The position numbers and the translations under genes were made by a program. From Lachnospiraceae bacterium (GTDB lineage Bacteria; Bacillota; Clostridia; Lachnospirales; Bianqueaceae): a stretch of 64,000 nt of DNA. The stretch lies in contig JAAWDX010000001.1 of the NCBI GenBank assembly GCA_022794035.1, forward strand, positions 209,936 through 273,935. Reading direction: 5' to 3'. Shown here in pieces: positions 960-36,398 of the stretch; within the stretch, counting starts at the first letter, position 1, and each line of letters begins with the position of its first letter. The notes below the pieces were generated by a model. That model was not told the DNA's origin. It worked only from the letters and a program-made list of their open reading frames with translations, and ran no database searches.

Positions 960-972
960 GGGGGGTGGGGCC

Positions 973-4469: not shown

Positions 4470-4473
4470 AAAT

Positions 4474-5396: not shown

Positions 5397-5450
5397 AAAA
5401 CACCCCAATGCATAAATTGTACTATATTATGGATTGGGGTGTTTTATTTA
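5397..5450 (+). terminator. Putative intrinsic terminator of the ABC operon
   Basis: Inverted repeat AAAACACCCCAAT (5397-5409) / ATTGGGGTGTTTT (5433-5445), followed by a T-rich tail. The loop is long (23 nt), which lowers confidence. Confidence 0.45.
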
Positions 5451-5707
5451 TGGGAGCTAGATGGATGGTAGAGGCTATGATTATTTTATTATCGCTTTCC
5501 GTGGTGATGATCATATGGCCGGGAATGAGGAAATTTATTTTGGGCTTTGTCCGCAATGCAGCAGTAGGGCTCTGTTTATTACAGCTGGCTGCTGTCGCGT
5601 TCGGACCGCAGCTTCAGGTAGGCCTTAACCTGCTGACGGGAGGAATTTGCGGTCTGTTTGGACTGCCGGGCACGGCCATGCTCTTAATTTTAAAAGGGGT
5701 GATGTAA
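5450..5707 (+). CDS. bofA: BofA-family (pro-sigma-K processing inhibitor-like) small membrane protein
   Basis: Small two-TM protein whose C-terminal half (GLNLLTGGICGLFGLPGTAMLLILKGVM) matches the BofA-family signature as I remember it. The ORF-track start (5408) lies inside the upstream hairpin, so ATG 5450 or ATG 5465 (GGGAG 8 nt upstream) is more plausible. Confidence 0.5.
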   Translation: MGARWMVEAMIILLSLSVVMIIWPGMRKFILGFVRNAAVGLCLLQLAAVAFGPQLQVGLNLLTGGICGLFGLPGTAMLLILKGVM

Positions 5708-5756: not shown

Positions 5757-5785
5757 TTGACAAGTTGAAGCATAATTTATATTAT
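5757..5785 (+). promoter_or_regulatory. SigA-type promoter of the giant surface-protein gene
   Basis: TTGACA (5757-5762), 17-nt spacer, TATTAT (5780-5785). About 95 nt of leader follow, then AGGAG 8 nt before the ATG at 5881. Confidence 0.6.
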
Positions 5786-5880
5786 GACTATGTATAGCTT
5801 TTTGGTATAGCACATACTACAGGGGCGTCACGGGGACGTCTGATCAAACTTATATATCATTCTTACAAAGGAGAAAGTTT

Positions 5881-8800
5881 ATGAACGGAAGACATTGCAA
5901 ACAGATAAAAAAAGTAATGGCGATGTTGTTATGCGCAGTGATGATGCTGGGCGATATGTCCAGTGTGATGACTGCTGGCGGAATTATGCCTGCTGCCCTT
6001 TCTGCGCAGCTTTCCTCTGAGGAAGGCAGCAGCGACGCTTCTGCAGAAACTGCGCAGGACAAGCTGCAATTTACGGCGGTACCCAGCTATCAGCCAGAGG
6101 AGGGAGAAGAGCTTCCGGAAGGGGCTCAGATAACCTATACATATAGCTGGCAGTATGCGGAGCGTAAATATGATAGATGGGGCAATGAGCAGGAGCTTAC
6201 AGAAGCTGACTGGAAAACATGCGTCATTGGAGGAGAGGAAAAGCCTGACGGTACGTTTAATCCATTCTGCACAGCAGCAGAGCAGGGAGTCACAGCAGAG
6301 GACGGCAGCAGTGTCGGCCGCATGCTTCTTGTTTCGGTGCCGGATGGCATAGATCGCCGTACGCAGCTTTCCAAGATGACGGTACGCTGCGTTGTGGGAG
6401 CAACAGTTCAGGATGGAGAAGGCAATGAGCTGGAGGAGCTTTCCAAGACGATCGTTACGAATAGGACCAATATCCGCATGGATGCAGCGCTGCTTGCTTG
6501 TGACCTTACGGTTACCTATACAGAGAATACAGTGCTGACGGTGTCGGCGCCGGATCTTAGCTATGAGGCAGTGCCTGCGGTGGCTAATGCGCCTGTTGAC
6601 AGTGATATTACATATACCTATACATGGCAGTATTATGATACTTCGGGATGGCGCGGACAGTGGAGAGATATTACCTATCGAAATTCTCCTCTTAAAAATG
6701 CAGTTGTTTCGGATGGTACGTTGATGCTGACCTTGCCGGCAACGATAGCAGAGAGGAAAAAGCTAGACGGCCTGCGGGTACAGTGTAAGGTGACGGCGAC
6801 AGCAGACGGATATACGATCGGCAATTCGCCAACTGGTTTTTATGAATTCGGGACGGTTTCCGTTGACAGCAGCCTGCTGCAGTATGGTCTTTTGGTGAGG
6901 AGCGACAATACAGCGGCGCAGATCAAGGATGCCAGTGATATTTTAAGCTTTAAGGTAACGCCCGCTCTGAGCGGCGCTGATGCGTCCTTCAATAATTATC
7001 AATACGATTGGCAGTATCTGGATGCTGAGGGCAACTGGACAAGTATTAGCCGCAGCGATGAAAACTGTCCATTGCGGTATGCTACCAGTACATCAGGAGC
7101 AGATTCTGTGTTATCGATGCCTTTGCCGGAAAATGTGGATTCGCGCAGAGCGCTTAATCAGACGAAGGTTCGCTGCGTTGTTTCGGTAAACGGTGTCAGT
7201 CCGGTCAATCCGCCGCAGGTGATTGGCGAGGAAGCAGTCGTAGAAATTGCTCCGGAGCTTTTGACAGAGTTTAGTTTGATTATGACGGCGTCGCCATCGA
7301 ACAGCAGCCGGATTGACTACCCTGGGCAGAGTATGTCCATTGGCTATGAAACGGCAGTGGATGGTCTGCATGCAGATGAGGCAGTTATAAAATATATTTG
7401 GGAATACAAGGCAAAGGGGGCTTCTGTCTTTCAGCCGCTGAGCGCAGCCTCTGGCATATTCCAAGGCGGCGTATTCAGCGAAAGCGGAAATAGCTTTAGC
7501 TTCAATAATACAGGGTCCAGCAATAAAGCGAATCTTAAGGCGATGGACGGAGCGACGATTCGCTGCACGGCCGAGCTATATGCCAACGGAGATGCGGCCG
7601 CAAACGGAGATCCCTATGAGATCAGCCGCTCAAAGGAAGTTACGGTAAGCATCAACGAAGCGCTCATTTCCGAGTATGGTCAGTCGTCATGGCTGCAGAA
7701 TGCATGGCTTGAGGTGGATGCAATCAATGAGCTGAATACCTTTGCAACAGGAAATGAAATATTGACCGTTCGTGCAACGGCTAGGGCAGAGGCGGATGAA
7801 TTTAATCTTCCTGACGGAGCCATAGCTGGTGATTATGCTTTAGGTGTTGACCCCAATTATGGCGGCGGCTATCAGCATGTATGGGAATATAGAGAGAACG
7901 GCAGTGAGGAATGGAAGCCCATCAGCACGCTTGAGAGCGCTGTGCTCGATTATATTACCATTACGGATGGCACGGATGATACGGAAAATACCAGTGTCTT
8001 AGAAATAGAGCTGCCCGAAACCTATGCCGGCCGTATGCGGCTGACGGGTATGTCCTTCCGCTGCATCAGCTCGGCGATTGCTACGGCGAACCATCTGAGT
8101 GAGGTTACGCGCTGGGGATTCATCTCGGCGAGCACACCGGATGATGCGTTTACGGTTTTGGTAAATCCAAAGCTGCTGCGCAGTCAGGCCTCCAGCACGC
8201 GCAGAATCATTGCGTTCCTTACCGCAGAGGAAGCAGAGCGCTATCTGGCGGATCCGGAAAACTTTGATGTCAGCACGGCGCAGCAATATGATTATACGAG
8301 ATCCTATCTGGTTGAATACTTTGCTGATGGTGTCAGAGAAGAGCGCGCTATCGCAAACTTCCCTGAAAGCGTGGTTGCGATTTATGAATATCAGGTAGAA
8401 AAGGATATTGAGACCGTTGAAACCAAGCTGGGCGCGGTGGAGATCCCTGTGCCCTGGAGATTTATTGTTCAGAACGGAAAACAATACAATCTAAGCAGTA
8501 CAAAAGCAGAATACCGGTATGATGCTGTATTTGCACAGATCATTCCGCAGTGGAATGCAGAGGAGCTGCAGAAATATATTGATGAGCATCCAGATCCGAA
8601 TGCGCTGGATTATGATGAAGATGATGCCGTTAAATGGGTGATTGCGGCCGGTCTGAACGGACGTTTTCCGCATATCAAGGTTTGCTGGAATACCGAGCTT
8701 AAAGGTTTGGCGAACAATGCAGATTATGTAAAATATAACGGTATGTACGGAGCCTCTGGCAGTGCAGAGGAAAAAGCCAAGGTAGCAGAGCTGGCAGGAG

Positions 8801-11800
8801 CGCCTAATAATCCTTATTGGAAACAAACCTATAGTGACTGGTTCTTTAAATCGAATAATGAGTTTAATGGAGACTTGCCTACGGCTGCCCAAAAGGCAGA
8901 GGGAAATAATGAGGCGGCTGCTGAAGCAGAGCAGCTGGCCTGGTTAAATGCGCACTATGGAACCGTTAAAGTCATGATGGATGATGTGCGTTCAGAGGAA
9001 AGTGATCCTACGCCCATTGTCATGGAGCTGCCTGTTACATGGGAAAAATATACAGTTGATGAATACGATACGGCTTCGCAGAGCATGACAGCCCGTTGGA
9101 TGGGCGGCGCCGCCGTGGCCAATATGCAGGGAGCACGTGCACCGGCCGCTAAATGGGTATGGCGTGCAAAGATCGACGCAGTAGAGCAAGGACAATATGT
9201 TCTGGCAGATGCATTCCGCTATACGAACATTGAAGCCAATATTTATTGGAGCCGCGTAATTGACAGTATTGTGGGCGCACTGATTAGTGAAACGGATGCC
9301 GCGACTACAAGCTTTGTTGCGCTCAGCAACGCCGCGCAGCTTAGCAGCAAAATCCCAACCGCGCTGCGCGTCGAGCTTAAGGATGCGAACGGCGGTCTGA
9401 ATATTACTGATACGATCACGATTGACGGCAGCAACTGGAAGCTGATCGAAGGCAGCGTATATGATGCGAGCCAGCAGTATCACTGGAGAGCGTTAAATGC
9501 AAATGCCGCTTCTATTGTAGATGAGGTAGGCACTGGATCGGCAGCAGGCTTTGTTGCGATCGAGCCGACGCTTAGCGGATATACCTTTACAGAAAATGCA
9601 GACACCGAAATGGCCAGAGTCTGGTATCAATGGGGTACGATCATCACCGGACTGAAAAAGGACGGCGGTGCTGATTTTGATGCGATTGCGGCTGCCAAAA
9701 CACCGATCATTAAGGTGCCGACGATTGGCGGGACCAATCAGTCGGCGGTGACATGGGGGAATTTACTCACCCAATTGAATAAGCCGTTTGGTGTAACCCT
9801 TTTAGATAAATCGAATACTACCGGCTTTAAGCAGAGCACCATTACGCCCTCATGGACACAGCCAGCCTATGATGCGACGGCGCCTGCCGGCAGAATCCAG
9901 CCGGCTGCTCAATTTGAAAGACCAGCCTCCGGCGTGGTATTTGGCGAGGATCTTGTGCGTGAGTTTAATGGGCGTGAGCCGTACGGAGAAATCAGCTGGA
10001 ATATTAATCCTCCCTCAAAGACCTCAGGCAGCACAAACTTCATTAAATATAATATAGTAAGCAATCAGCCTCATGTTACAGGTGCTGCGGGGCAAAAAAC
10101 AGTTTATGCGGATAAGCCTTGGGAGTGTTATTATACAGCTAGCTCCTCTCCGACTGTCAGTCAGAAAACAACCAATTTTGGCGCTCAGGATGTTTGGCAG
10201 GATGCCGGCGAGAGCGTAAAATACATGGTCAAAACCAGCGAACGCGGCGGCGGCGCTTTTGTAGAGTATAGCGTCACCTTCCGCAACGACAGCACCGGCA
10301 CGCGCTATGTAGGCCTGTCCTATGGTTCTGACGTTATGATCCACAACAATGACAGAGCGCCTCTGACTGTTACCAGCAATGGTATCAAGATGGAAGAGGC
10401 AAGCGGTGATATGTGCCAGTTTAATATCAATACCACTACAGCCACGGCCGGTATCAGCGTTTCGGCAGACGGCTATTGGATTGGCGTTTACAGCGGCCGT
10501 CAGCACTGGCAGTCCACGGTTGCCGGGGATGGCAATAAGAAAATCAATGCGAATGGCGAGGCCTATGTGACGGGTATTGACTCTGGTCTGACCTTTAGCT
10601 GGGTGCCGCAGAAGCATCCGCTTGCGCCCGGTGAGTCGGTCACCTTTACCTGCCAGTTTGGTATTGGTAAGATGTCCGAGCCGCCGCGCATTGTGCCGCA
10701 TTATGACAGCGGCAGCGGCAGAAGCACCAACGTGACGTTAAATGGCAGCAATCTGGATATCAGCGCATGGGTGGCCGGCGAAGCGGCATATCCGCTCAGA
10801 CTTTACTATGTTCTGGATGAAGGGCTGCCCACACAGCAAAGTGAGGCCTCCCTGGGCAACAAGGTAAACGCACAGGGCGTTGTCTCGGCAGCCACCTTCC
10901 GCGGCTATAGCGCAGCGCAGCAAACAGCATATTTCAGAACCGGAACAGAGAATCATTTTGTCAATATAACTGGTACAGTAGAAAAGCCCAGAGACTGGGT
11001 CGCGGGTGAATATCATTCTATCACGGTATATGGACTTTCCGATGCAGGTCTCATGACAGATTCTGTGCGCTTCCCTCTCTATGTAGATGAGAACGAAGAC
11101 GGTGAAGAAATCTTTGTAGAAGCCACCGATGCGACTGTCAATTTCAATAGGGGAGCCGGCAGCGGTACGGCGCCTGCATCGCAGACGGCTCACATGCAGG
11201 AGCCCATTGTCCTGCCTAAGGGTGACAAGCTGACGCCACCCAGCGGCCAAAAGTTTGTTGGATGGAGCTATACGGAGGATAATGGTAAAACAACGATTTA
11301 TCCTGCCGAGAACTATTTCTATGTTGAGAAAAACCCGACCACGCTTACCGCCCGCTATATCCCAACCAGCCAGACAATGTATCTGGTCGAGACCTATATG
11401 CAAAATGCAAACGGCGATTACGAGCAGGAGGATACAGAGGTTCGGATTGATACGGCAACATCCGGCAACATCGTCTTTACACCAGACCCGATGCCCGGGT
11501 ATACGGTCAATACCAGCAAATCAAAGCTCAGCGTGACCAGAAACGACGGCGCAATTGTCCAGGTATATTATGACATCAATCATTATGATGTAGTTTATAA
11601 CCTCAACGGCGCTCCCGGCGGCGATGAAAATGGAATCTTCAAAACGGTGCAGGTAGCCTACGGCGGCAACGTCAGCGGCGTGCCCAATGCCGCCGCCCTA
11701 AATGCCGGTCAGAACAATCAGTTCTTCCGCTTCAGAGGATGGTTTGAAAACGCCGATCCCGAGGACCCCGGCAATATCATCGACACCGACACCGTGGTGG

Positions 11801-20800: not shown

Positions 20801-23800
20801 ATATCAGCAGTGACCATACGGTTCAGGTAACCTGCCTGAGCATGGCTGTAAGCGAGATCTATTATGTTGATGTTACGCCGGGCAGTGCGATAGCCAGCGG
20901 CAACTGTGAAGTACAGGTAGGGACGGATCATACCGTTACCTGGAAGCCTGCAGCAGGCGAGCATATTGTTTCGGTAACGGTAAATGACCAGCCGGTGGAT
21001 ATCGGAAATGCCAATACCGGCGGCAGCTATACGATTACGGGGGCGGCTAAGGATGAGGTATTCCATGTGGTGATCACCTCTGAACAAAATGCTGACACTC
21101 CGGAAGAGGAAGTTTACTTTGACGTAGCTGTGACAGCGAAAAACTGTACGGTGAGCGGTCAGACGCATGTTAAGGCCGGAGAGTCTACAACGATTGCCTG
21201 GGAGCCTGAGTTTGGCTATGAGGTCAAGTCTATTATCATTGATGATTCTGCCAGACCGGTTACACTGGAGTCGTTCACATTTGATGCTATGAGCAGTGAT
21301 CACAGTGTGATCATTGTCTGCGAACGAATCGGCAGTGAGGATCCGGATCCGGAAGCGGCCTATACGATCAGTACGCGGATTACCGATGGCGGTACGATTA
21401 CGGCTCCGGTTACAGTAAGCACACCTGAGGAAAAGCAGAGCCAGACGATTGCCTGGAGCGCACCGGAAGGCTTCCGGGTAGCGCAGGTGAAGATTGACGG
21501 CGTGCAGCGACCTGAGCTTACAGAAGCAGGCAGCGTGACCTTTACGGATATTGCCGCCGATCATAGCGTGGATGTAGAGTGCCGGCAGATCGAGAAGCAT
21601 ACGATTACGGTTTCAAACGATAACGGAACCATCAGCGCGGCTCCGGCTCTGGTAGAAGACGGCGGCAGCAGCGTTGTGACATGGAGCGGCATGGCAGGCT
21701 TTGTGCTTAAGTCGGTACAGATGAATGGGATTTCGTTAAGTGCGGATGCATATACGGATCATGGCGACGGCAGCTACAGCCTGACGCTTCAGAATGTCAT
21801 CTCAGATCATGTGATTGTTGTAGAGTATGAGCCGGATGCATCGCTGGATCCGGGCAATACGAAAAACTATATTTATACGCATATCGATCATGGAACGATT
21901 ACACCGACGGTTACGCTGACAAGCGCAGCCGATAGGGCATACCAAAAGATCGAGTGGACGGTGGCCGAGGGGTATCGTATCACAAGAGTACTGGTTGATG
22001 ATCAGGCTGTTTCGGCAGCAGGCATGGTTGAACTGACGAATATTGCCGGTGACCATACAGTGAGCGTAGAATGTGAAAAGATTCCTGCGTATACCGTGGC
22101 AACGGATGCGAAGAATGTGACCATGATTACGCCCACCAAAACAGATATACCAGAAGGCAGCGCGCATAGCGTTTCTTGGAAGCATGAAGACAATCTGGTG
22201 CTGAAGGTATTTAAGGTTGATAATGTAGAGGTGGCACTGGCAGAGGGAATAACCTCCTATGAGTTCACGGATGTCCGTGAGAATCATACGGTCTATGTGG
22301 AATATGGACCTCAAGATGAGCCAGAGAAGCCGGATAAGGTAGAAATTTCGGTTATGGTAACCAATGGTACCAAGACAGGCGGCGGTACGCTGAATTATGG
22401 TACCAAGAGTCACACCGTGACATGGACGCCCAACGCAGGCTATGAGGTCAAGAGTGTTATCATTGACAGCGTAGCGATGGCAGAGGAGCAGATCAAGAAA
22501 ACAGGAGACAGCCTGACCTTTACGGATATCACCGGCAGTCATAGCATTGTTGTTGTATGTGAAATCCCGAAGACGGGCGAGGATCCAGAGCCGGATGAAA
22601 AGGTATATCTGGAGGCCAATATCATCAACGGTACTTTTGAACCGGAAAATGAGTTTGGCGTATATGAACTGGAAAAGGGTACGGATTTTGAAATCAGCTG
22701 GACGCCGCAGGAGGGCTATCATGTGGTCAGCGTTAAGCTGGATCAGGTAGAACGGCCGGATCTGCTAGCAGATGGCCGGCTGAAGCTCATTGGCATCAGC
22801 GGCGATCATGTGCTGACGGTGGAATGCAGGGATGAAGAAGAGGAGCCTAACGAGGGACCGTTTACGATCACAACCTCGATCGATCATGGCAGTATCAGCG
22901 AATCCTTCACCACAGATGAAGAGCATTCATCTTATACGGTAAGCTGGACGGTGGACAGCCGCTATGAGATTGTTTCTGTTATGGTGGACGGTAACCCATA
23001 CGCCAATGCGGCGGATGGCTATATCGATTTTAATCCGATCAGAGCCAATCACACCGTGGATGTACGCAGTCAGCTGAAGGATCAGCCAGTCAATACACAT
23101 GTGATCAATGTCATAGTGGATAACGGCGGTACGCATGCCGTGATCGTGGATGGAAATCCTGCAGAGTATGTAGAGGATGGCGGTTCAGCCAAAGCTACAT
23201 GGCAGGCGGCCGATGGCTATGATGTAACCAGAATCGTCATTGACGGCGTGAGCTATAACAGCCTGCCGGGCTGTGATGCGCAGAAGGGTGAGTATACCTT
23301 CAACAATGTGACCAAGGACCATGAGATTATTGTGTATACGGGTAAGCATGTGGAAAAGGAGCCTGTATATTACGGCATTACCATTTTGCCGCACGGTGAT
23401 CCCAGCGGGCTAGAGCTGAGTGAGTCGCTGCCGTCGGTGCTGGAAGGAACAGAAATTGCTGTTACGTGGAAAGCTAAACCCGGCTGGCAGATCGATAAGG
23501 TGACGCGAAACAATAACATCATGTCAGCAGCGGATATGGCCGCAGGCATGACGGAGGACGGCTTTACGTTTACTGTCAATGCAAACAATGATTTTGTTGT
23601 ATATGTCAGCAAGCAGGGGCCGGCGGATGATAGCTTTGTTACGGTTACAACGGAGATCAACAGCGGCTGGATCAGCAATGGCGGTTCCGTTAAGAAAGGA
23701 AGCAGCTTTGAGGTAGCATGGCGGCCGGGCGACGGATATACGGTTGATCAGGTGACGATCACCGATGCAGATGGCAATAAAACGGTGCTCACGGAAGGGC

Positions 23801-26800
23801 TTGACAATGCGCAGAACTGGAAGCATACGCTTGACAGTATCACGGCGAATACATTGATTCAGGTTAGCTGTGTGAAGCAGCCGGATGATGAGCCTCCGCT
23901 GATCTATTCCTATCAGATCGATACGCAGGCAACCAATGGTGTGATTACCGGCGGCGGTACAGTAACAGCAGGAACCGATCGCGAAATTACATGGGCTGCG
24001 GCGGATGGATGCAGCATCAAGAGTGTCATGCTGTATGAAATCAGCAGAGAAGATGGATCGCGCACCGAGATGGATATCTCAGATGCGGAAAATAACCGGT
24101 ACACGATTCAGAATATCGATGCAGACTATTTGGTTGTTTTGATCTGCGAGAATGAAATGCAAAGCGATGATGATTTCTTCTATGACATCTATACCCAAAT
24201 CACCAATGGTACAATCAATGGCCCGTTCCTTAATCTCAGGAAGGCTGATCAGGCGGTGGTGAGCTGGACGCCGGCAGAAGATTGCTATGTGAAGGCTGTA
24301 TTGGTCGATGGCAAGGCTGTGAGCATTCCGGCAGATCATCAGCTTGAGGTATTGGTAGAGGGTGATGACCATGTGGTGGAAGTCATCTGCGAGAAGAAAA
24401 AGCCGGTAGAAATTCCGGATGATGTAACGCCATATACGATTGAAACCTATATCTATGATGGTCTGGGCGAGATTACGCCTAAGACAGCAGCACTTCCTGG
24501 TTCGGATGTCACCGTGCAGTGGAAGGGCGATGCGAATAATCATTATAAGGTGGATCGAGTCTATGTAGACGGTAAGAGCATTGAGATTCCGTCAAATAAT
24601 ATGTTTACCTTTACAAATCTGGATCAGAACCACAAGATCGAAGTATACCTTGCGGAAAATCTGGTCAATGTAGAAGTAAGCTATGAAGGAAATGGCGAGG
24701 TTGTAAAATCTGGTACGGTATACTGGGGAGAAAACTTTGGTATCGTTCGCGGTTTGCCGAATGAGGGATACCGGCTGGAGAGCGTGATTTTGAATGGCAA
24801 GCTTCTGCAGCAGGGAGAGATCATCCCCGAGCTTCTTCCGGATCCGGATATGCCTTTGCCAGGAGAACCGACAGAGGAAGAGCAGCCGGCAGCGAGAATG
24901 CTCAGAAGAGCAGGACGCAGGCTGGCGGCGCCCACTGCGCTGCTTAGCGCAAGGGCAGAAGACTATACGAAATTCACGGAAAATGAGTTCCAGAATACAT
25001 TCTATTTCCGTGATGTAACGCAGCAGCAAAGCGTGAAATATGTCTTTGTAGATAATAATGGCACAAGTGATTATGCGCCTTATCAGGTTAACGTTGAGCT
25101 GGTCGACGGACGAGGAGAGCGGGAGGTTGCAAAGAATGTGGCCGCTGGCTCGGATACATCGATTGGCTGGACGCTCGATGAAGGATATTACGTAGATCAT
25201 ATCAGCGTAGTACGCAACAATCTGGAAAGCGATATCAATGATCTGGAGGATGCAAATCTGCAAGGCGATAGCCGTGTAGGGCTAACCAATGTGCAGGCCA
25301 ATACAACGGTTAAGGTTTATCTCAAACGCGGTACGCCACCGGATCCGCAGGATGCCAATGATTTCTCGCTTAGCATCGATGTAGTAGGTCCTGGAAGCAA
25401 CGATCCGGATATCCGTGTCTATGGTGCAGGCCGAGGCATGGCGGCCGGCGCGCATGAAGCCAGCTGGGCCGTTGGGGATCATAAGGTCACAATGGTGAAG
25501 GTGGATGGCGCAGTGCGCGAGGATTTGATTGGCAAGACCAGCACAGTGATTCAAATGAACCGAGAGGATGTTAAGCGCGATCATCATGTTATTGTATATT
25601 TGGATGGCGTGGTGCTGCCGGGTCTTGAAAAACAGGCAGGCGGCGGCGGAGCAACCGTTGGTGATGTGATTCCGTATACCATTAGCGTATGGAATGATAC
25701 CGATCAGGCGATCTGGGAAAATGTCACGCTGAGTGATGTGATTCCCGCAGGTCTGAAGGTGGATACAGCATCTATGAAGCTTTACAGGGTGAATGCGGAT
25801 GGCAGCAAAACGCAGATCACAAGCGTCCTGCCAGTATACGATGCTGCTACGCGCACGATCAGTGCTTCGCTGGGAGACATGACAAAGGCAGATAAGTTTG
25901 AGCTTGACTTTAATGCAGAGGTTGAGCCGGAAGCTGCCGGTCAGGATATTGGTAACGCGGTTAAGGCCGTGGGAACCAATTCAGGTACAACGGACCGGGA
26001 TCCGCAGCACATTGTGGAAGCGGTGACGGAGAAGGTATACCCTGGCGGTACGACCTCCGTGCTTCCGAAAGCGCCGGCTCCGCATCTGACGAAAACTGTT
26101 TCCAACAATAGCGCCCATCCAGAGCATACCCGTGTTGGCGATACACTGACCTATACGATCGATGCCTGGAACAGTGAGCCGGGGGCTGTTTGGAAGAATG
26201 TTAAGATCAAGGATGATGTTCCGGAAGGGCTAGAGGTTCTGGAAAGCAGTATAGAGCTGAGTGAAATCATTGGCAGCAGCAAGCTGCCGGCACCAGAGGA
26301 TCTGAGCGTTCAGTATGATGCTGTCAATCGAAGCCTTACGGTGAATTTGGGCGATGTGCAGTACAATCAGCATTATCAGATCAGCTTTAAGGTCTTGGTT
26401 CTGCCGGAGGCTGTTGGTAATGATATTGGTAACGTCGCTTTGGCGGCCGGTACGGCGCCTGATAAGACACCTGTCAGCGAGGAAACGGCTCCTGTGTACC
26501 CGAGCGATTTGGATAAACCGGATCAGGACGGCGTTTTGCCGGCTGCGCCGGCGCCGCTGGTGGAAAAGACGGCTCATAATCTGGACCGCACGGATGAGCA
26601 GAGCAAGGTCGGCGATACGATTGAGTATACGCTGACTGTGAAGAACACTAAGGCGGGCTCAACGTGGAAGGATGCTGTCCTGCGCGACCGGATTCCGGAG
26701 GGACTTGAACTGGATACTGCAAACATCGTTTTGCGGACACCGGACGGAGATATCACGCTGGATGCCGCGGTCTATGATGAGACCAGCCGAATCATTTCGG

Positions 26801-27693
26801 TGTATCTGGGAGACGTGACTTCGGAGCAGCCGTATCAGCTGGTATTTACGGCGAAGCTGGTGGGCAGTCCTCAGGATTATAATATTGGTAATATCGCATG
26901 GGCGAATGGTAAGGATCCTTCCTTGCCGGGCAGTGATCAGCCGACGCCTGGGGTCGATGAGAATACCGAGCCGGGTGACCCGTACTTCCCGCCGGAGGAC
27001 GACTGGGTGGATGAAGGCGGCCCGACGACGGAGAAGGTGTATCCGGATGAGAAGGACAGACCGCTGACACCAGGACCAAAGCTGACGAAGACGTCGCGCA
27101 ATCTGACGCATCCGGCCAGCAAGCTGGAAATTGGCGATGTGCTTGAATATGAGCTAGAGATTGCCAATACGCAGCTGGGTTCGGTATGGCGGAATGTGAC
27201 AGTTACCGATACGCTGCCTGAGCAGCTGGCACTGCAGCCTGATGGGTGGATGCTGATTCATCCGGATGGAACGGTAGAGCCGCTGCAGATTGAGAATATC
27301 TACGATGAGGAGACGCATAGCTTTACGGTTGTGCTTCCGGAGGCAGTTCTCACGGGAGGAACCTATTGGCTGCGGTATCAGATGGCGGTTTCTGGTGAAG
27401 GCTTGGGAGATGCGCCGGTGGTGGATATTACAAATAAAGCGACGGCGACTGGTACAGATATTGATGGTCATATCGTGGCGGTAGAAGCGGCTGACATCGT
27501 TCAGTATGAGAAACCAGCTGCGCCAGAAGAGCCTGCAGAGCCAAAACCACAGGAGCCGGAGAACAGCGGTTCCGGTGGAATTCAGACAGGCGATTCTGCG
27601 AATGCAGCGCCGTATCTGGTGGTGCTGCTGACAGCAGTTATCTTGCTTGCTGTGATTGTGATTCTGAGAGTGCAGAAGAGTAAGAAGAAATAA
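5881..27693 (+). CDS. Giant (7,270 aa) secreted, probably sortase-anchored cell-surface repeat protein / adhesin
   Basis: A single uninterrupted 21.8-kb ORF with a strong RBS. N-terminal signal peptide (KQIKKVMAMLLCAVMMLGDMSSVMTAGG...ALSAQ). Listeria-Bacteroides-repeat-like segments (e.g. FNRGAGSGTAPASQ...FVGWSY). Many ~90-aa modules with the signature (Y/H)TVTW.A..GY.V.SV.(V/I)(D/N)G. Four DUF11-type repeats. C-terminus ...PQEPENSGSGGIQTGDSANAAPYLVVLLTAVILLAVIVILRVQKSKKK, i.e. a sorting-like motif, a hydrophobic helix and a basic tail. Confidence 0.95.
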   Translation: MNGRHCKQIKKVMAMLLCAVMMLGDMSSVMTAGGIMPAALSAQLSSEEGSSDASAETAQDKLQFTAVPSYQPEEGEELPEGAQITYTYSWQYAERKYDRWGNEQELTEADWKTCVIGGEEKPDGTFNPFCTAAEQGVTAEDGSSVGRMLLVSVPDGIDRRTQLSKMTVRCVVGATVQDGEGNELEELSKTIVTNRTNIRMDAALLACDLTVTYTENTVLTVSAPDLSYEAVPAVANAPVDSDITYTYTWQYYDTSGWRGQWRDITYRNSPLKNAVVSDGTLMLTLPATIAERKKLDGLRVQCKVTATADGYTIGNSPTGFYEFGTVSVDSSLLQYGLLVRSDNTAAQIKDASDILSFKVTPALSGADASFNNYQYDWQYLDAEGNWTSISRSDENCPLRYATSTSGADSVLSMPLPENVDSRRALNQTKVRCVVSVNGVSPVNPPQVIGEEAVVEIAPELLTEFSLIMTASPSNSSRIDYPGQSMSIGYETAVDGLHADEAVIKYIWEYKAKGASVFQPLSAASGIFQGGVFSESGNSFSFNNTGSSNKANLKAMDGATIRCTAELYANGDAAANGDPYEISRSKEVTVSINEALISEYGQSSWLQNAWLEVDAINELNTFATGNEILTVRATARAEADEFNLPDGAIAGDYALGVDPNYGGGYQHVWEYRENGSEEWKPISTLESAVLDYITITDGTDDTENTSVLEIELPETYAGRMRLTGMSFRCISSAIATANHLSEVTRWGFISASTPDDAFTVLVNPKLLRSQASSTRRIIAFLTAEEAERYLADPENFDVSTAQQYDYTRSYLVEYFADGVREERAIANFPESVVAIYEYQVEKDIETVETKLGAVEIPVPWRFIVQNGKQYNLSSTKAEYRYDAVFAQIIPQWNAEELQKYIDEHPDPNALDYDEDDAVKWVIAAGLNGRFPHIKVCWNTELKGLANNADYVKYNGMYGASGSAEEKAKVAELAGAPNNPYWKQTYSDWFFKSNNEFNGDLPTAAQKAEGNNEAAAEAEQLAWLNAHYGTVKVMMDDVRSEESDPTPIVMELPVTWEKYTVDEYDTASQSMTARWMGGAAVANMQGARAPAAKWVWRAKIDAVEQGQYVLADAFRYTNIEANIYWSRVIDSIVGALISETDAATTSFVALSNAAQLSSKIPTALRVELKDANGGLNITDTITIDGSNWKLIEGSVYDASQQYHWRALNANAASIVDEVGTGSAAGFVAIEPTLSGYTFTENADTEMARVWYQWGTIITGLKKDGGADFDAIAAAKTPIIKVPTIGGTNQSAVTWGNLLTQLNKPFGVTLLDKSNTTGFKQSTITPSWTQPAYDATAPAGRIQPAAQFERPASGVVFGEDLVREFNGREPYGEISWNINPPSKTSGSTNFIKYNIVSNQPHVTGAAGQKTVYADKPWECYYTASSSPTVSQKTTNFGAQDVWQDAGESVKYMVKTSERGGGAFVEYSVTFRNDSTGTRYVGLSYGSDVMIHNNDRAPLTVTSNGIKMEEASGDMCQFNINTTTATAGISVSADGYWIGVYSGRQHWQSTVAGDGNKKINANGEAYVTGIDSGLTFSWVPQKHPLAPGESVTFTCQFGIGKMSEPPRIVPHYDSGSGRSTNVTLNGSNLDISAWVAGEAAYPLRLYYVLDEGLPTQQSEASLGNKVNAQGVVSAATFRGYSAAQQTAYFRTGTENHFVNITGTVEKPRDWVAGEYHSITVYGLSDAGLMTDSVRFPLYVDENEDGEEIFVEATDATVNFNRGAGSGTAPASQTAHMQEPIVLPKGDKLTPPSGQKFVGWSYTEDNGKTTIYPAENYFYVEKNPTTLTARYIPTSQTMYLVETYMQNANGDYEQEDTEVRIDTATSGNIVFTPDPMPGYTVNTSKSKLSVTRNDGAIVQVYYDINHYDVVYNLNGAPGGDENGIFKTVQVAYGGNVSGVPNAAALNAGQNNQFFRFRGWFENADPEDPGNIIDTDTVVDETTLDTIEPGGKLIAYAHWQPLGNAQATFDYNYQNHAQGASRSDKIALDPIVSESGRYGYSSKPRRLPATPSAWKDTEGKVYTFLEWRLVENGEMTETVVTKDTILPNYENVTIKALWTESYSVSRSSQGDGTIWDINDPAGGERSYAPGDTVDIRWRANPGSYVQHVYIDNVLSDDLIKNGGWHLEDIRENHSVYVVFGFGEGDSGIEEETTYNITATPVGGVAFDVPERGGTYKAQYGEDYTVKWRISPGYTLSSVTINGLPMDISESDNSYTFNNIHIDQEIKVTAVRGSGGISGGGTVNRGPYTISTKIGRGTEITPNQTVAYGDSSTITWKVPYGFVVDSVLINRVPLATPPQNNTYVFRNVTQNSSIIVMCKPDPSLPPDTIYVTTTIDDHGSITPTTPIGQLAKGDNHTVTWSADSGYYVSAVYIDNVLQKTDSGANKIFYSYTFTNLQTNHDVVVEVKPVESSGGDTPAPALHAITTSMENGGTIDKPGSVPNGSDVTVTWRMAPNHRVVGVYLDGELVDDYNAETNGNSYTLRNITAAHTLKVVCERVISDIDLTGKHIVTTTINLGASDGQKIVNDGESCTVSWTPPKGYHVSSLKVDGVEQSYVDGNSWTIDHVTKDITIAVTVEKDSEQNYKIAANIVNGGTVSGGGTVNVGKGAILRWTVADGFRVSDITIDGVSVSGIDLENDRSYSFPASQGAAGQTYQFNVICTPKLYYHVRPTGTGCENLSASADPYVGDAYTVSWKAAEGYRFKSVTINGTEVTPVLKDGVYSYTFDSSNTAANGTYQVEVLCDKIRSYTITTGRNSGGVVSASKTLYETDAEKSYTVTWSASSGYRVKAVTVDGMPYTGESYVFNYEDGKDVTLRVEFEPQKYYTVKAIGKNTGITAGNGTYTIDTDTTVKWTAPEGFVLSSVTIDGTEVTVAADQTEYTFDHTTGLTAGHTYEIIVTYVAEGAGGEEPEEPDQFYTVQTAGVFTRTISESAARKLGEDYLVLWTVLDGYQLQSVKVNGTAVTNYTAQLGGYSLLISGADKTADEVVTVEVICEKIQPGQPGGGGSVITPYSVYAYTNDAALGTVTPSAATLKEDGAEAAVKWDAKQYCHIVSVTVSDYPDRSNPVLLTEEQAAAGVYTFAYDDHTDKIVDVVFERDPQYAVSSAAAGNLGEGCTVTGSGVLKQAGDECTVSWTVSAGYRIESIVIADADGQNAQTLDAAAMARGSLTLRYADLSADRKVTVTYEKNTTGSAWRTVHAQVNDAAMGTVTPSVKSLTAAGSTCSIAWTANPGFRVRSVIVSNYPDGSDARALSREELAEGQYTFAYNDGKDQHVYVVFEQDPAYEISIIGVDGGAGSTVTGGKTLTASGQSHMVTWAAGAGYQVKSVVIANTDGTNTQTLSAEEAARNSYTFEYDTMTASRKVTVTFEKAIPSVYSVVTSVNDESMGWISPSADLYAEGAEYTVSWGAHEGYYVKSVTVNGADYTGNTYTFRYSGHQDAAVQVVYEKYPEFVISTEKVGGGANSSVRSGATLTRSGETYAVTWSADSAFKVDSVVITDAAQQVVKTLSETEIAAGKYTFAYDQMSSDQKLTVVFATDTSSGGGAGTLPYSVTTSVNDEAMGSIDPSATLRRPDAEYTVTWSAKSGYQVKSVTIDGQTYTRAEGNLPSSYTFKYNDHKDVAVSAMFEQEPQYVITTEQKGNGGAGSFVSDGAVLSQPGQAHTVTWFADEGFHVKSVVVSKPDGSDRITLDAAAIQLGSYTFTYEGVGASDRKLVVTFEKDEDTTPGGGGSIPATPYTVTTSVNDETMGTVSPSMTLKEAGATYEVTWSAHEGYYVKSVSIDGRGYAPGSYTFAYDEYKDVTVKVTFAPNQEYTASAVMVGGGAGSRVLPASGTLSESGDTHTVKWTADEGYKATSAVVTNAKGKVVWTCDETELAAGQYTFSYDEMTSDQTITVTFTKENADAQIYAINTSVNDAAMGWVSPSVTLRAAGESTITWGANTGYRVKKVTISDPDGGNAREASAEELTSSRFVFRYADKKDLALHVELEPIPSYEITVEKIGGGAKSTAEPASAVLSQTGDRQTVTWNADTGYHVESVVISRPDGSDRTVLDAAAIAAGSHTFTYASMGGSDRKITITFKKDETPGGLTAVPYSIGTSKIGSGIVTAPKTLYHEGETHVVAWTPEAGWHVAEVTINGVPYRGADNQIPTSYEFKYDDHRDAALIVTFAENDKRTITTVMSGVYGPGSRVSEGGTLKLDGQTHTVTWTAEEGYEVVSVTDSKPDGSDAKTVDAASGSYTYQYEALDSDRLLTVTFAKQEGTPVYSVITGVNDTAMGTVTSGATLKASGETAEIVWSAKPGYHVREVVYKLDGAVQADAPASPYTFRYDDGHDAELYVVFERNTGYTVNVNPVGSGTAANPKTMYGVGEQYEVWWKPNEGAELVSVTVSGYAPLGESKVLTADDWTYDAASGRYGYTFEYDKMAADATIDIVFKDKDYYYITTSAQNVQSITAAPEQCELTQSSTIQWVPAEGAVLQAIKIDGVSQAITDPNQTELIFTPDSPAANQIYLIEVIYELQTEEEPAQPEYRINVSKEGSGTVTGAGILRQEDADSENHAVTWTAAEGWHVSKVVVDRTRLSDEEAASGSYTVKYSELTGDVNIKVVFERDQIIAPPAEENRFTVSTEYEGNGTISNGATLSEGEEPYTVTWAAGDGWYVKSAQLIKTEDGTVIQSLDESSYLFSYEVGQNVTVKVVFEKEAQYSITAVIDAGGSISPAAATLRKGDAPAEIIWSISDSEKFSLKSVTINGTALSASEYTKADGSYGYTFVYDDLFAAGMPENIVLKVELDEAEQPAQPQQYLISTGITPSIAGTISAAAMVAENGSYIVTWNAKSDYRVTKIEVTENGTTRELTAADSGLYAFTNVTGNCSIMVSCEERSQIDLGGDERFYEIVTGINGGSMDDGKTVRSVREGDSYTVSWTPDPGSYVASVVVDGAQVPVCTEYTFNDISSDHTVQVTCLSMAVSEIYYVDVTPGSAIASGNCEVQVGTDHTVTWKPAAGEHIVSVTVNDQPVDIGNANTGGSYTITGAAKDEVFHVVITSEQNADTPEEEVYFDVAVTAKNCTVSGQTHVKAGESTTIAWEPEFGYEVKSIIIDDSARPVTLESFTFDAMSSDHSVIIVCERIGSEDPDPEAAYTISTRITDGGTITAPVTVSTPEEKQSQTIAWSAPEGFRVAQVKIDGVQRPELTEAGSVTFTDIAADHSVDVECRQIEKHTITVSNDNGTISAAPALVEDGGSSVVTWSGMAGFVLKSVQMNGISLSADAYTDHGDGSYSLTLQNVISDHVIVVEYEPDASLDPGNTKNYIYTHIDHGTITPTVTLTSAADRAYQKIEWTVAEGYRITRVLVDDQAVSAAGMVELTNIAGDHTVSVECEKIPAYTVATDAKNVTMITPTKTDIPEGSAHSVSWKHEDNLVLKVFKVDNVEVALAEGITSYEFTDVRENHTVYVEYGPQDEPEKPDKVEISVMVTNGTKTGGGTLNYGTKSHTVTWTPNAGYEVKSVIIDSVAMAEEQIKKTGDSLTFTDITGSHSIVVVCEIPKTGEDPEPDEKVYLEANIINGTFEPENEFGVYELEKGTDFEISWTPQEGYHVVSVKLDQVERPDLLADGRLKLIGISGDHVLTVECRDEEEEPNEGPFTITTSIDHGSISESFTTDEEHSSYTVSWTVDSRYEIVSVMVDGNPYANAADGYIDFNPIRANHTVDVRSQLKDQPVNTHVINVIVDNGGTHAVIVDGNPAEYVEDGGSAKATWQAADGYDVTRIVIDGVSYNSLPGCDAQKGEYTFNNVTKDHEIIVYTGKHVEKEPVYYGITILPHGDPSGLELSESLPSVLEGTEIAVTWKAKPGWQIDKVTRNNNIMSAADMAAGMTEDGFTFTVNANNDFVVYVSKQGPADDSFVTVTTEINSGWISNGGSVKKGSSFEVAWRPGDGYTVDQVTITDADGNKTVLTEGLDNAQNWKHTLDSITANTLIQVSCVKQPDDEPPLIYSYQIDTQATNGVITGGGTVTAGTDREITWAAADGCSIKSVMLYEISREDGSRTEMDISDAENNRYTIQNIDADYLVVLICENEMQSDDDFFYDIYTQITNGTINGPFLNLRKADQAVVSWTPAEDCYVKAVLVDGKAVSIPADHQLEVLVEGDDHVVEVICEKKKPVEIPDDVTPYTIETYIYDGLGEITPKTAALPGSDVTVQWKGDANNHYKVDRVYVDGKSIEIPSNNMFTFTNLDQNHKIEVYLAENLVNVEVSYEGNGEVVKSGTVYWGENFGIVRGLPNEGYRLESVILNGKLLQQGEIIPELLPDPDMPLPGEPTEEEQPAARMLRRAGRRLAAPTALLSARAEDYTKFTENEFQNTFYFRDVTQQQSVKYVFVDNNGTSDYAPYQVNVELVDGRGEREVAKNVAAGSDTSIGWTLDEGYYVDHISVVRNNLESDINDLEDANLQGDSRVGLTNVQANTTVKVYLKRGTPPDPQDANDFSLSIDVVGPGSNDPDIRVYGAGRGMAAGAHEASWAVGDHKVTMVKVDGAVREDLIGKTSTVIQMNREDVKRDHHVIVYLDGVVLPGLEKQAGGGGATVGDVIPYTISVWNDTDQAIWENVTLSDVIPAGLKVDTASMKLYRVNADGSKTQITSVLPVYDAATRTISASLGDMTKADKFELDFNAEVEPEAAGQDIGNAVKAVGTNSGTTDRDPQHIVEAVTEKVYPGGTTSVLPKAPAPHLTKTVSNNSAHPEHTRVGDTLTYTIDAWNSEPGAVWKNVKIKDDVPEGLEVLESSIELSEIIGSSKLPAPEDLSVQYDAVNRSLTVNLGDVQYNQHYQISFKVLVLPEAVGNDIGNVALAAGTAPDKTPVSEETAPVYPSDLDKPDQDGVLPAAPAPLVEKTAHNLDRTDEQSKVGDTIEYTLTVKNTKAGSTWKDAVLRDRIPEGLELDTANIVLRTPDGDITLDAAVYDETSRIISVYLGDVTSEQPYQLVFTAKLVGSPQDYNIGNIAWANGKDPSLPGSDQPTPGVDENTEPGDPYFPPEDDWVDEGGPTTEKVYPDEKDRPLTPGPKLTKTSRNLTHPASKLEIGDVLEYELEIANTQLGSVWRNVTVTDTLPEQLALQPDGWMLIHPDGTVEPLQIENIYDEETHSFTVVLPEAVLTGGTYWLRYQMAVSGEGLGDAPVVDITNKATATGTDIDGHIVAVEAADIVQYEKPAAPEEPAEPKPQEPENSGSGGIQTGDSANAAPYLVVLLTAVILLAVIVILRVQKSKKK
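12160..25600 (+). repeat. In-frame tandem array of ~85-95-aa InlB-B-repeat-like (Ig-fold) modules inside the giant gene
   Basis: The recurring pattern (Y..T....GG.(I/V)......V..G....(V/I).W.(A/P)..G(Y/F).(V/L).S(V/I).(V/I)(D/N)G.......YTF..(V/I)..(D/N)H.(I/V).V.) is visible throughout about 4,480 aa. That gives on the order of 50 modules if the period holds. This is a by-eye estimate, not a computed count. Confidence 0.8.
25650..27480 (+). repeat. Four DUF11 / 'conserved repeat domain'-type modules at the C-terminus of the giant protein
   Basis: Four paralogous ~130-150-aa blocks begin GDVIPYTISVWN, GDTLTYTIDAWN, GDTIEYTLTVKN and GDVLEYELEIAN. Each is followed by W(E/K/R)NV.(L/I/V).D.(I/V/L)P.(G/Q)L... 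and a later IGN(A/V/I) motif. Confidence 0.7.
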
Positions 27694-27700
27694 AAAGAAA

Positions 27701-27749
27701 GAAGGGCTTCCTTAGGCTGCCAAGCGGCAGCTAAGGAAGCCCTTCTTTT
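27701..27749 (+). terminator. Intrinsic terminator of the giant gene
   Basis: Long stem GAAGGGCTTCCTTAG(G)CTGCC / GGCAGCTAAGGAAGCCCTTC with loop AAGC, followed by TTTT (27746-27749), starting 8 nt after the stop codon. Confidence 0.85.
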
Positions 27750-28063
27750 GCATGTTGGCGGGGGCGTGAGAATGATTATCACCAACATGCAAATGGTGGA
27801 TTTGCACGCCGGAGGCAGCGCAGGAATGATTGACATGGACATGCAAACAGTGGATTTGCATGCCGAAGGGGGCGCAGGAATGATTGACATGGGCATGCAA
27901 ACAGTGGATTTGCATGTCGGAGGGGGCGCAGGAATGATTGCCGCCAACATGCAAACAGTGAATTTGCATGTCGAAGGACGTTCGGGAATGATTGACATGG
28001 ACATGCAAACAGTGAATTTGCATGTCGATAGGAACCCGGGAATGATTATCACCAACATGCAAA
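27746..28063 (+). repeat. Tandem array with a 54-bp period: 5 full and 2 partial units, each with the palindrome ATGCAAA-N7-TTTGCAT
   Basis: Unit starts (ATGCAAA) fall at 27787, 27841, 27895, 27949, 28003 and 28057, exactly 54 bp apart. An example unit is ATGCAAACAGTGGATTTGCATGCCGAAGGGGGCGCAGGAATGATTGACATGGGC. The array fills the whole gap between the two convergent terminators. Confidence 0.95.
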
Positions 28064-35274: not shown

Positions 35275-35281
35275 GGCTTCG

Positions 35282-36388: not shown

Positions 36389-36398
36389 GGAGGTAGGG

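Follow-up and report, generated by a model that had tools for sequence, protein, structure and literature searches.

A 64,000-nucleotide stretch of the genome of an uncultured Lachnospiraceae bacterium (GenBank assembly GCA_022794035.1, contig JAAWDX010000001.1, positions 209,936 to 273,935 of the forward strand), hereafter called the window, contains a single giant open reading frame (ORF; 5881-27693, plus strand) whose product is likely to be a fibrillar adhesin. The gene comprises 7,270 codons and a stop, starts with ATG and has its only stop codon at the 3' end, thus confirming the 21.8-kb uninterrupted reading frame noted in the preliminary description; exactly the same protein is recorded at NCBI as MCI8632062.1. 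The strong ribosome-binding site and the consensus-like promoter claimed previously are also present. The former, as read directly from the sequence, is an AAAGGAG motif located 7 nt before the ATG (5867-5873, plus strand), whereas the latter, identified from its consensus match only, is a sigma-70-type promoter-like site (TTGACA-17 nt-TATTAT; 5757-5785, plus strand) that lies ~95 nt upstream of the start codon and agrees with the consensus at 11 of 12 positions. The number of promoter-like sites upstream of the gene does not exceed the chance level (two seen versus 1.6 expected from shuffled sequences), so that this site is informative only through the quality of its match. A public gene call of 7,258 amino acids (P0045) represents the same protein with a start at Met-13 (window 5881-5919); we favor the longer form starting at Met-1, because the GGAG site is situated 7 nt upstream of this residue. 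Directly 3' of the stop codon, a long hairpin with a bulge and an adjoining U-run form a predicted intrinsic terminator (27697-27749, plus strand), with a folding energy of -43 kcal/mol (z = -7.0) that was reached by none of 200 shuffled sequences; due to its bulge, it was missed by a simple terminator scan. Judged by these signals, the giant gene is a self-contained monocistronic unit with its own promoter-like site, ribosome-binding site and terminator.

The mature protein (computed for residues 42-7236) has a mass of ~777 kDa and a pI of ~4.5, is rich in Thr, Val, Ala and Gly and contains 0.6% Cys. Hydrophobic segments are found only at its two ends (residues ~13-24 and 7245-7262). The first of them forms the core of a signal-peptide-like N-terminus with a basic n-region (residues 1 to ~31; 5881-5973, plus strand, as for all features of the protein described below), consistent with the previously proposed Sec signal peptide. 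Cleavage probably occurs after VMTA, with matching sites in a 76%-identical orthologue of 7,261 amino acids (P0003; AMA↓A) and in a 92%-identical relative (L007; VMA↓A). The subsequent region contains five modules of ~125-160 amino acids (residues 58-778; 6052-8214), which were delimited with an iterative hidden Markov model (HMM) and are also present in five copies in the orthologue. They share an invariant Trp and an invariant Cys within the pattern Y.Y.WQY ... L.L.LP...R..L.G..VRC.V, from which an immunoglobulin (Ig)-superfamily-like fold may be guessed, and gave no significant match in Pfam, NCBIfam or the Protein Data Bank (PDB). When searched against PDB sequences, the profiles of these modules and of the stalk units described below produced only marginal or non-significant hits (Tie2 Fn3, E = 0.005; 'Ig-like domain-containing protein', E = 0.2). 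The modules are followed by an orphan region of mixed alpha/beta character (residues 779-1385; 8215-10035) that likewise has no match in Pfam, NCBIfam or PDB sequences. An AlphaFold model of this segment (residues 766-1385), based on only seven sequences, reached a pLDDT of 48.9, and a fold search of the PDB returned nothing below E = 0.38; this poor outcome is explained by the small number of homologues. The preliminary description had set aside about 1,000 residues as resembling nothing recognizable, which even understates the situation, as residues 1-1745 as a whole lack a significant Pfam, NCBIfam or PDB sequence match.

The most informative part of the N-terminal region is a candidate binding domain (residues 1386-1605; 10036-10695), hereafter called the head, which is predicted by AlphaFold and Foldseek to adopt a beta-supersandwich fold. 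Together with the Ig-like beta-sandwich that follows it (residues 1606-1745; 10696-11115) and accompanies it in its relatives, it was modeled with high confidence (pLDDT 90.1, pTM 0.88) as a large all-beta domain next to an Ig-like sandwich. Foldseek placed it next to the beta-supersandwich domains found at the N-termini of GH94 phosphorylases, a GH15 glucodextranase, a cyclic-glucan synthase and a polysaccharide lyase, with E-values as low as 7e-6 (probability 1.0, 260-285 aligned columns at ~10% identity) and TM scores of 0.36-0.41 when normalized on the whole 381-residue query; a library of viral structures gave no meaningful match (TM <= 0.25). Conserved positions of this region, in the numbering of its alignment (A1), are D105, I108, D112, A114, W154, G156, Y158, D188 and W195. 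The head family is absent from Pfam. It constitutes the N-terminal part of small proteins that fall into ~25 clusters, many of which possess a signal peptide and a sorting signal. In these small relatives, the head is often joined only by its Ig-like partner, and sometimes by Flg_new repeats, before an LPxTG-type anchor. The 391-residue protein P0015, for instance, essentially consists of the head, positioned directly after the signal peptide, the Ig-like domain and an anchor, which leaves the head as its sole candidate functional domain. In the alignment of the giant protein with its 76%-identical orthologue, from which all conservation values given here are derived, the head block is 90-93% identical, compared with 49-72% for the N-terminal 800 residues (modules 68%) and 67% for the C-terminal base. 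Moreover, the head does not carry a single substitution in P0043, the most divergent of the strain variants. Its superior conservation, its invariance in this divergent strain and its position behind the signal peptide in small proteins single out the head as a candidate functional element. Its similarity to accessory domains of carbohydrate enzymes, in turn, suggests a glycan as its ligand, which is the weakest step in our argument.

The Ig-like domain is connected to the stalk by a short region (residues 1746-2094; 11116-12162) in which two or three units weakly resemble Flg_new (Listeria-Bacteroides repeat) and a further segment, as judged by eye and below curated thresholds, may be MucBP-like. 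The profile matches are all sub-threshold (Flg_new, 21.2 bits at a cut-off of 27; TIGR02543, 16.4 bits at a cut-off of 20.95), and an HMM built from confirmed Flg_new repeats also yielded only weak hits in this region.

The stalk itself makes up 62% of the protein and is composed of 51 tandem units of ~75-93 amino acids (residues 2095-6577; 12163-25611), identified with an iterative HMM, that conform to the consensus Y.I.t...Gtis...G...tVtW.a..GY.V.sV.iDG...Y.F....d..v.V. and show a mean pairwise protein identity of 25%, with a maximum of 60%. The best Pfam match of the unit is Flg_new_2 (PF18998, 'divergent InlB B-repeat'), whose layout is similar (G..V...G..VtltA.p..GY.F). A single 2,200-residue segment scored 24.1 bits with this family (cut-off 23.6) and 10 of 49 single units were matched at E <= 0.1 (best 6.7e-5), but most units fell short of the curated threshold, so that we regard the link as marginal. 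A kinship with the canonical Flg_new family was rejected, given an hhalign probability of 0.5% between the two profiles. Within the stalk, two sub-types of units alternate over a stretch of 16 units (residues 3043-4464; 15007-19272), forming a di-domain super-repeat that was recognized in the unit alignment and harbors the direct-repeat families D1, D3 and D4. Unit 49 contains an 81-residue insertion (residues 6319-6399; 24835-25077), with a Pro/Glu-rich stretch followed by the Arg-rich sequence AARMLRRAGRRLAAPTALLSARAED, which is retained in the 76%-identical orthologue and might serve as a hinge, protease site or interaction site. The preliminary description had postulated at least five repeat classes in the protein. 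Four of them are clear, namely the N-terminal modules (five copies), the weak Flg_new-like units, the stalk units (51 copies) and the CLIPPER domains described below (four copies), whereas a fifth is only obtained if the alternating sub-types of the stalk are counted separately.

The units of the stalk have one-to-one counterparts in the 76%-identical orthologue, and comparison of the available sequences provides clear evidence for a structure that, as far as can be read from the repeats, has a fixed length at the level of strains and sister species. Over deeper divergence, its length does change, as illustrated by a 59%-identical homolog with 19 units (L009). Beta-sandwich domains are typically 3.5-4 nm long, and the 53 BIg domains of the giant non-fimbrial adhesin SiiE from Salmonella (5,559 amino acids) span ~175 nm. 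By analogy, the 51 units and the other ~15 domains of the giant protein may form a fibre with a length on the order of 200 nm. Low sequence identity between neighboring units is established as a means to avoid inter-domain misfolding in titin-type arrays, and the divergence of neighboring stalk units could have the same effect here.

At its C-terminal end, the stalk gives way to four CLIPPER/DUF11 (CnaA-like) domains (residues 6581-7215; 25621-27525). Both PF01345 (80.1 bits, cut-off 24.6) and TIGR04226 (126.9 bits, cut-off 30) match in four stretches, and the isopeptide triad is complete in all four domains, with the Lys in [LV][ET]K[QT], the Asp in x-D-x-[IVL]-P-x-x-L and the Asn in [DN]I[GT]N. 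The context of these motifs aligns with that in crystal structure 9IFR, making the giant protein, by its sequence, a true carrier of CLIPPER domains with predicted isopeptide bonds. In the 9IFR system, bond formation raises the melting temperature from ~45 to ~80 degrees C and confers protection against proteinase K (PMC12617251). According to the same work, CLIPPER domains typically occur in adhesin stalks and belong to the stalks of fibrillar adhesins made of a single chain (PMC12617251). A locked base at the cell wall would be a sensible design for a long lever that is exposed to shear.

The protein ends with a putative sorting signal (residues 7233-7270; 27577-27690) composed of the motif GIQTGD, an 18-residue hydrophobic helix (residues 7245-7262) and the basic tail RVQKSKKK. 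The wall-sorting-like C-terminus reported previously was thus described accurately, although it is not recognized by the canonical anchor HMMs. With a motif that starts 38 residues from the end, a helix and a basic tail, it shows the features expected of sorting signals (PMC4155245). Among the relatives of the protein, the motif forms a graded series, comprising LPKTGD, LPQTGD, APKTGD, TPETGD, VPRTGD, AVKTGD, GVKTGD, AVRTGD, GIKTGD and GIQTGD, whose canonical end does match Gram_pos_anchor.

The outer part of the protein has a very narrow distribution, and its relatives are very rare. An exhaustive HMMER search of 1.84 billion cluster representatives returned 33 hits for residues 780-1760, while residues 780-1380 were found in only about six close relatives. 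A word-index homologue search recovered no more than two fragments with the orphan region and head, missing even the protein itself, and nothing with the stalk-unit and N-terminal-module profiles, and is therefore given little weight; rarity is gauged reliably by the HMMER search. Among 185,579 species-representative genomes, relatives were detected in two only, both of them metagenome-assembled genomes (MAGs) labeled 'uncultured Clostridia bacterium'. One of these sequences is the 92%-identical relative already mentioned, which is cut by the end of its contig; the other (L008) shares 52% identity, and its ORF, which exceeds 5,394 amino acids, runs off the locus. A scan of JGI metagenomes added one locus, the 59%-identical homolog with the shortened stalk (contig ULWX01026048.1), whose anchor motif is VRTGD.

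Collectively, these features make it likely, to the extent that function can be read from sequence, that the product of the gene is a single-chain fibrillar adhesin belonging to an uncultured, Gram-positive member of the Lachnospiraceae. Such adhesins and fibrillar adhesin-like proteins combine a signal for export with a functional region at the distal end, a stalk and an anchor at the C-terminus (Monzon et al., PMC8286594; also PMC9210967), and the adhesin-like character proposed in the preliminary description agrees well with this scheme. Based on its sequence, the giant protein is predicted to be extracellular, with signal-peptide features and no internal hydrophobic segments, and it has a stalk of tandem domains as well as a non-stalk N-terminus of ~2,000 residues that contains a conserved head and matches no known adhesive family. 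From this layout, we infer its export, anchoring chemistry, rod length, adhesion and type of ligand as follows. The precursor would be exported through the Sec pathway by means of its N-terminal signal peptide and then attached to the cell by its C-terminal signal, most likely through sortase cleavage at GIQT↓G and linkage to peptidoglycan or, failing that, through a helix that holds the protein in the membrane. Close to the wall, the four CLIPPER domains would lock themselves by Lys-Asn isopeptide bonds, producing a base that resists both pulling forces and proteases. The 51 non-identical, beta-rich units would form the predicted rod and carry the N-terminal ~2,000 residues past the envelope, where the distal region, with its five modules, the 600-residue orphan region and the supersandwich head with its Ig-like partner, could bind its target. 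Judging from the fold of the head, this target may be a glycan on the surface of a host, a food particle or a neighboring cell.

Several observations weigh against this interpretation. The likeness of the head to carbohydrate enzymes is modest (TM ~0.4, ~10% identity) and concerns structural, non-catalytic domains, so that the fold by itself does not demonstrate binding. Furthermore, the head does not occupy the extreme tip of the protein but is preceded by 1,385 residues, and searches of Pfam and NCBIfam did not detect a known adhesive domain family anywhere in the protein. In the 59%-identical homolog, an in-frame TAG (5082-5084; GGC TAG GCC) replaces a Glu codon of the window sequence (…REPYG-E-ISWNI…), leaving ORFs of 1,459 and 2,629 amino acids. 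It could have arisen by nonsense mutation or by an error in sequencing, or the codon could be read through, and it implies that members of this giant-gene family can decay. The remaining points concern the anchor. Its motif reads GIQTG instead of LPXTG and lies outside the variants LPxTG, LPxTA, NPxTG, LAxTG, NPQTN and LPxGA (PMC8286594) as well as (S/P)PxTG (PMC4155245). Gram_pos_anchor (PF00746) and TIGR01167 failed to match the C-terminal 691 residues even at E <= 1. In the literature, the nearest analogue is the NVQTG motif of CbpA from C. difficile, which SrtB failed to cleave in vitro (PMC4155245). Finally, a sortase gene is missing from the 64-kb window, which lacks an ORF containing TLxTC.

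The points concerning the anchor, including the absence of the Leu-Pro of LPXTG, also speak for a different mode of attachment, in which the C-terminal transmembrane helix retains the protein without sortase processing, leaving GIQTGD as a relic and the fibre anchored in the membrane. We consider this alternative rather improbable, albeit one to be reckoned with. It is at odds with the conservation of the T-G-D core, the 38-residue distance to the C-terminus, the hydrophobic stretch and the basic tail, and with the gradation of the relatives up to canonical LPKTGD and LPQTGD motifs. Moreover, sortase genes need not be linked to those of their substrates, and a load-bearing fibre of 777 kDa with an isopeptide-locked base would be best explained by covalent attachment to the wall. 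On balance, these sequence features make sortase anchoring clearly likelier than plain membrane retention.

Instead of acting as a specific adhesin, the fibre could also serve as a spacer, a protective coat or a cohesion scaffold in aggregates or biofilms, with the length of the stalk constituting its actual function. The large share of the stalk in the protein and the strict conservation of the unit number between orthologues would fit this possibility, as would the lack of a recognized adhesive domain in the Pfam searches, and rod-like protein stalks may indeed have roles beyond scaffolding that are poorly studied (PMC9704523). However, the strongest conservation is observed in the non-repetitive head block rather than in the stalk, and the occurrence of the head family in short proteins devoid of a stalk argues for the head, and not for length, as the primary functional determinant. 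We therefore regard a purely structural role as unlikely.

Two further identities are suggested by individual search results. The Foldseek matches of the head to GH94 phosphorylases, glucodextranase and polysaccharide lyase could point to a surface-tethered carbohydrate-active enzyme or enzyme scaffold, but they are restricted to the non-catalytic N-terminal beta-sandwich of these proteins. No (alpha/alpha)6 or other catalytic domain was detected in Pfam, NCBIfam and PDB sequence searches, and the orphan region (residues 779-1385), where an enzymatic part is still conceivable, lacks an enzyme signature as well. Given that no catalytic family is detectable beside the sandwich, an enzymatic identity was rejected as very unlikely. 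Even less probable is a pilus (fimbrial) subunit polymerized by a pilus-specific sortase, as implied by the automated names in NCBI and IMG. This notion rests on the fourfold match of TIGR04226, entitled 'isopeptide-forming domain-containing fimbrial protein', and on the fimbrial name that the public records bear. The match is, however, confined to residues 6581-7215, equivalent to ~9% of the protein. There is no YPK[NDG] pilin motif anywhere in the sequence and no adjacent sortase or further pilin gene that could form a pilus gene cluster with this monocistronic, separately terminated gene; in addition, we know of no pilin of 7,270 amino acids, and one of this size would be unprecedented. Together with the association of CLIPPER domains with single-chain fibrillar adhesins (PMC12617251), these findings led us to reject a pilin identity.

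The preliminary description had also raised the concern that the repeats may have been collapsed or expanded during assembly and had proposed to compare the number of repeat modules among strains. Neither line of inquiry revealed a problem. Tandem Repeats Finder (TRF) did not identify any DNA tandem repeats in the giant ORF, and its longest direct DNA repeat has a length of 84 nt, with an identity of no more than 70%. The stalk repeats are therefore too divergent, and the DNA repeats too short and dissimilar, to leave an assembler anything to collapse. In six independent assemblies (L001-L006), of which one is an NCBI MAG and five are Logan runs, the 9,575 nt covered match the window with 100% nucleotide identity; this span corresponds to the 3' part of the gene with half of the stalk, the base and the anchor. 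The samples behind the assemblies bear the accessions ERR9852904, SRR11450203/4, SRR24991840 and SRR11195279, for which a literature search returned nothing. The recovery of an identical sequence in runs from different samples suggests that one clone recurs, as would be the case if they came from one animal colony or from a defined community. Full-length calls of 7,270 amino acids are available from NCBI, ENA, IMG and Logan sources. The five full-length variants in the 90% cluster differ by 0-52 substitutions and have no internal insertions or deletions, with the further ENA, IMG and Logan versions deviating from the window protein at 0, 1, 1 and 52 positions, and the number of modules varies neither among them nor in the 76%-identical orthologue, which is collinear from end to end (33 gapped columns of 7,282). 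Comparison with the 92%-identical relative (82.7% nucleotide identity; first 3,727 codons) yielded a pN of 0.052, a pS of 0.59 and a dN/dS of ~0.05, with regional dN/dS values of 0.02-0.14 that are approximate since dS is near saturation. Purifying selection on the whole reading frame, as deduced from these comparisons, is not in doubt, and the concern about mis-assembly is largely settled without the need for long reads. Although every available assembly is a short-read metagenome and one distant relative carries an in-frame stop, the possibility that the ORF arose during assembly through the collapse, expansion or chimeric joining of repeats, or that the gene is silent and decaying, is strongly disfavored by the concordance of these sequences and the low dN/dS in the tested regions, to the point of being practically negligible.

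The giant gene is flanked by a bofA gene and a MacB-type ABC exporter upstream and by gyrA and gyrB downstream. The bofA gene (5450-5707, plus strand) encodes an 85-residue membrane protein that matches BofA, an inhibitor of pro-sigma-K processing, with 34.1 bits (cut-off 26.1), implying that the organism is an endospore former. The host is thus a Gram-positive, probably spore-forming and uncultured Lachnospiraceae bacterium. The MacB-type export system (114-5394, plus strand) comprises an HlyD/RND-adaptor-like protein, an FtsX-family permease of 936 residues and two ABC ATPases encoded by separate genes; between this system and the giant gene lie bofA and a terminator-like hairpin. On the other side, the encoded GyrA protein is identical to NCBI MCI8632064.1, and a second strong hairpin (-34 kcal/mol) represents the terminator of the convergent gyrA gene. 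The spacer between the two terminators (27747-28063) contains ~5.4 tandem copies of a 54-nt unit with 81-85% matches. Each unit has a palindromic core, CATGCAAA-N7-TTTGCATG, which occurs five times in this array and nowhere else in the window (0.01 expected). The array has no Rfam match, in line with a scan of positions 5300-28200 that did not retrieve any family at the gathering threshold. It differs from a CRISPR locus in that the whole unit is repeated, and a spurious 92-residue ORF was placed on it by gene callers. Numerous long ORFs are also found on the minus strand inside the giant gene (7999-27111), the longest of which spans 615 amino acids (16726-18573); most likely, they merely reflect its biased codon composition and are not genes. 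Downstream of gyrB (34303-37628, plus strand), a MoxR-type AAA ATPase, a weakly DUF58-like protein and an unannotated protein of 409 amino acids are encoded, forming a typical MoxR/DUF58 cluster that is unrelated to the giant gene.

Lachnospiraceae rank among the major members of communities that are anaerobic and often associated with a host, and the surface attachment of their uncultured representatives is almost unstudied. With 21.8 kb of sequence under strong purifying selection, the giant gene is presumably important to the organism. The exact sequence of its product was already available from NCBI, under a misleading name ('isopeptide-forming domain-containing fimbrial protein') that applies to no more than the last 9% of the residues. 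The three families at the outer end, i.e. the N-terminal modules, the orphan region and the head, are new to curated libraries, and one of them has a confidently predicted fold: the head family, still missing from Pfam, could enter the catalogues of adhesins. In addition, the protein provides a well-supported case in which the length of a giant, probable adhesin is fixed and does not vary. It is tempting to go further and speculate that the head represents a new adhesive, probably glycan-binding family common to a few dozen small sortase-type proteins of Clostridia, that the orphan region has a novel fold and a separate function, such as a second binding or an enzymatic activity, and that the 51 units act as a molecular ruler. 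Taken together, this picture is possible but tentative.

As a kind of protein, the giant protein is already known: it follows the textbook design of fibrillar adhesins in Gram-positive bacteria and does not change any general principle. It shares with them the signal peptide, a distal, non-repetitive N-terminal region, a tandem beta-rich stalk and a putative C-terminal sorting signal, in what is predicted to be a single-chain design. Unlike the catalogued fibrillar adhesins (PMC8286594, PMC9210967), it lacks catalogued adhesive domains, and its stalk unit and three N-terminal types are not represented in Pfam; with 7,270 amino acids, it is located at the far end of their size range. Like other CLIPPER/DUF11 adhesins (PMC12617251; 9IFR), it carries CLIPPER domains with the Lys-Asp-Asn triad, four of them in tandem, in the part of the stalk beside the anchor. 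In this case, however, they form a short wall-proximal base that accounts for 9% of the protein rather than the main stalk.

By size, the protein belongs to the class of 'huge proteins' with > 5,000 amino acids (PMC11573180). Within its own bacterial family, it resembles the giants of Ca. Epulopiscium viviparus, which comprise 5,500-6,900 amino acids and are acidic, rich in Thr and Ala and poor in Cys, with tens of Ig-fold domains (PMC10756260). The likeness is one of description, based on similar size and composition, and the composition of the giant protein also agrees with the signatures that this study gives for giant surface proteins. In contrast to the giant protein, those Epulopiscium proteins that carry 31 and 21 Ig-fold domains were reported to be devoid of secretion signals (PMC10756260). 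Giant1-5 of Apilactobacillus kunkeei, a symbiont from the Bacillota, are comparable in that they are described as extracellular surface proteins of 3,000-8,000 amino acids, although they come from a different lineage and are encoded by five consecutive genes in a cluster (PMC12863079).

Two further systems help to place the stalk. Like SiiE, the giant protein contains ~50 non-identical tandem domains of the beta-sandwich type and is predicted to build a fibre of roughly 200 nm. Yet SiiE is a type I-secreted protein of a Gram-negative bacterium with calcium-rigidified BIg domains, whereas the giant protein has a Sec-type signal, a putative sorting signal and a different repeat family. With the Periscope proteins (SasG, Rib and Sgo0707), it would have in common a rod-like single-chain stalk on a Gram-positive surface. 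Those proteins are characterized by highly identical repeats whose number varies among strains (PMC9704523). An assignment to this group was rejected, because the repeats of the giant protein share 25% identity on average (60% at most), include no TRF repeats and are invariant in number in the five variants with at least 90% identity and in the 76%-identical orthologue. If its stalk indeed functions as a molecular ruler, the giant protein would thus follow a strategy opposite to that of the variable-length Periscope proteins.

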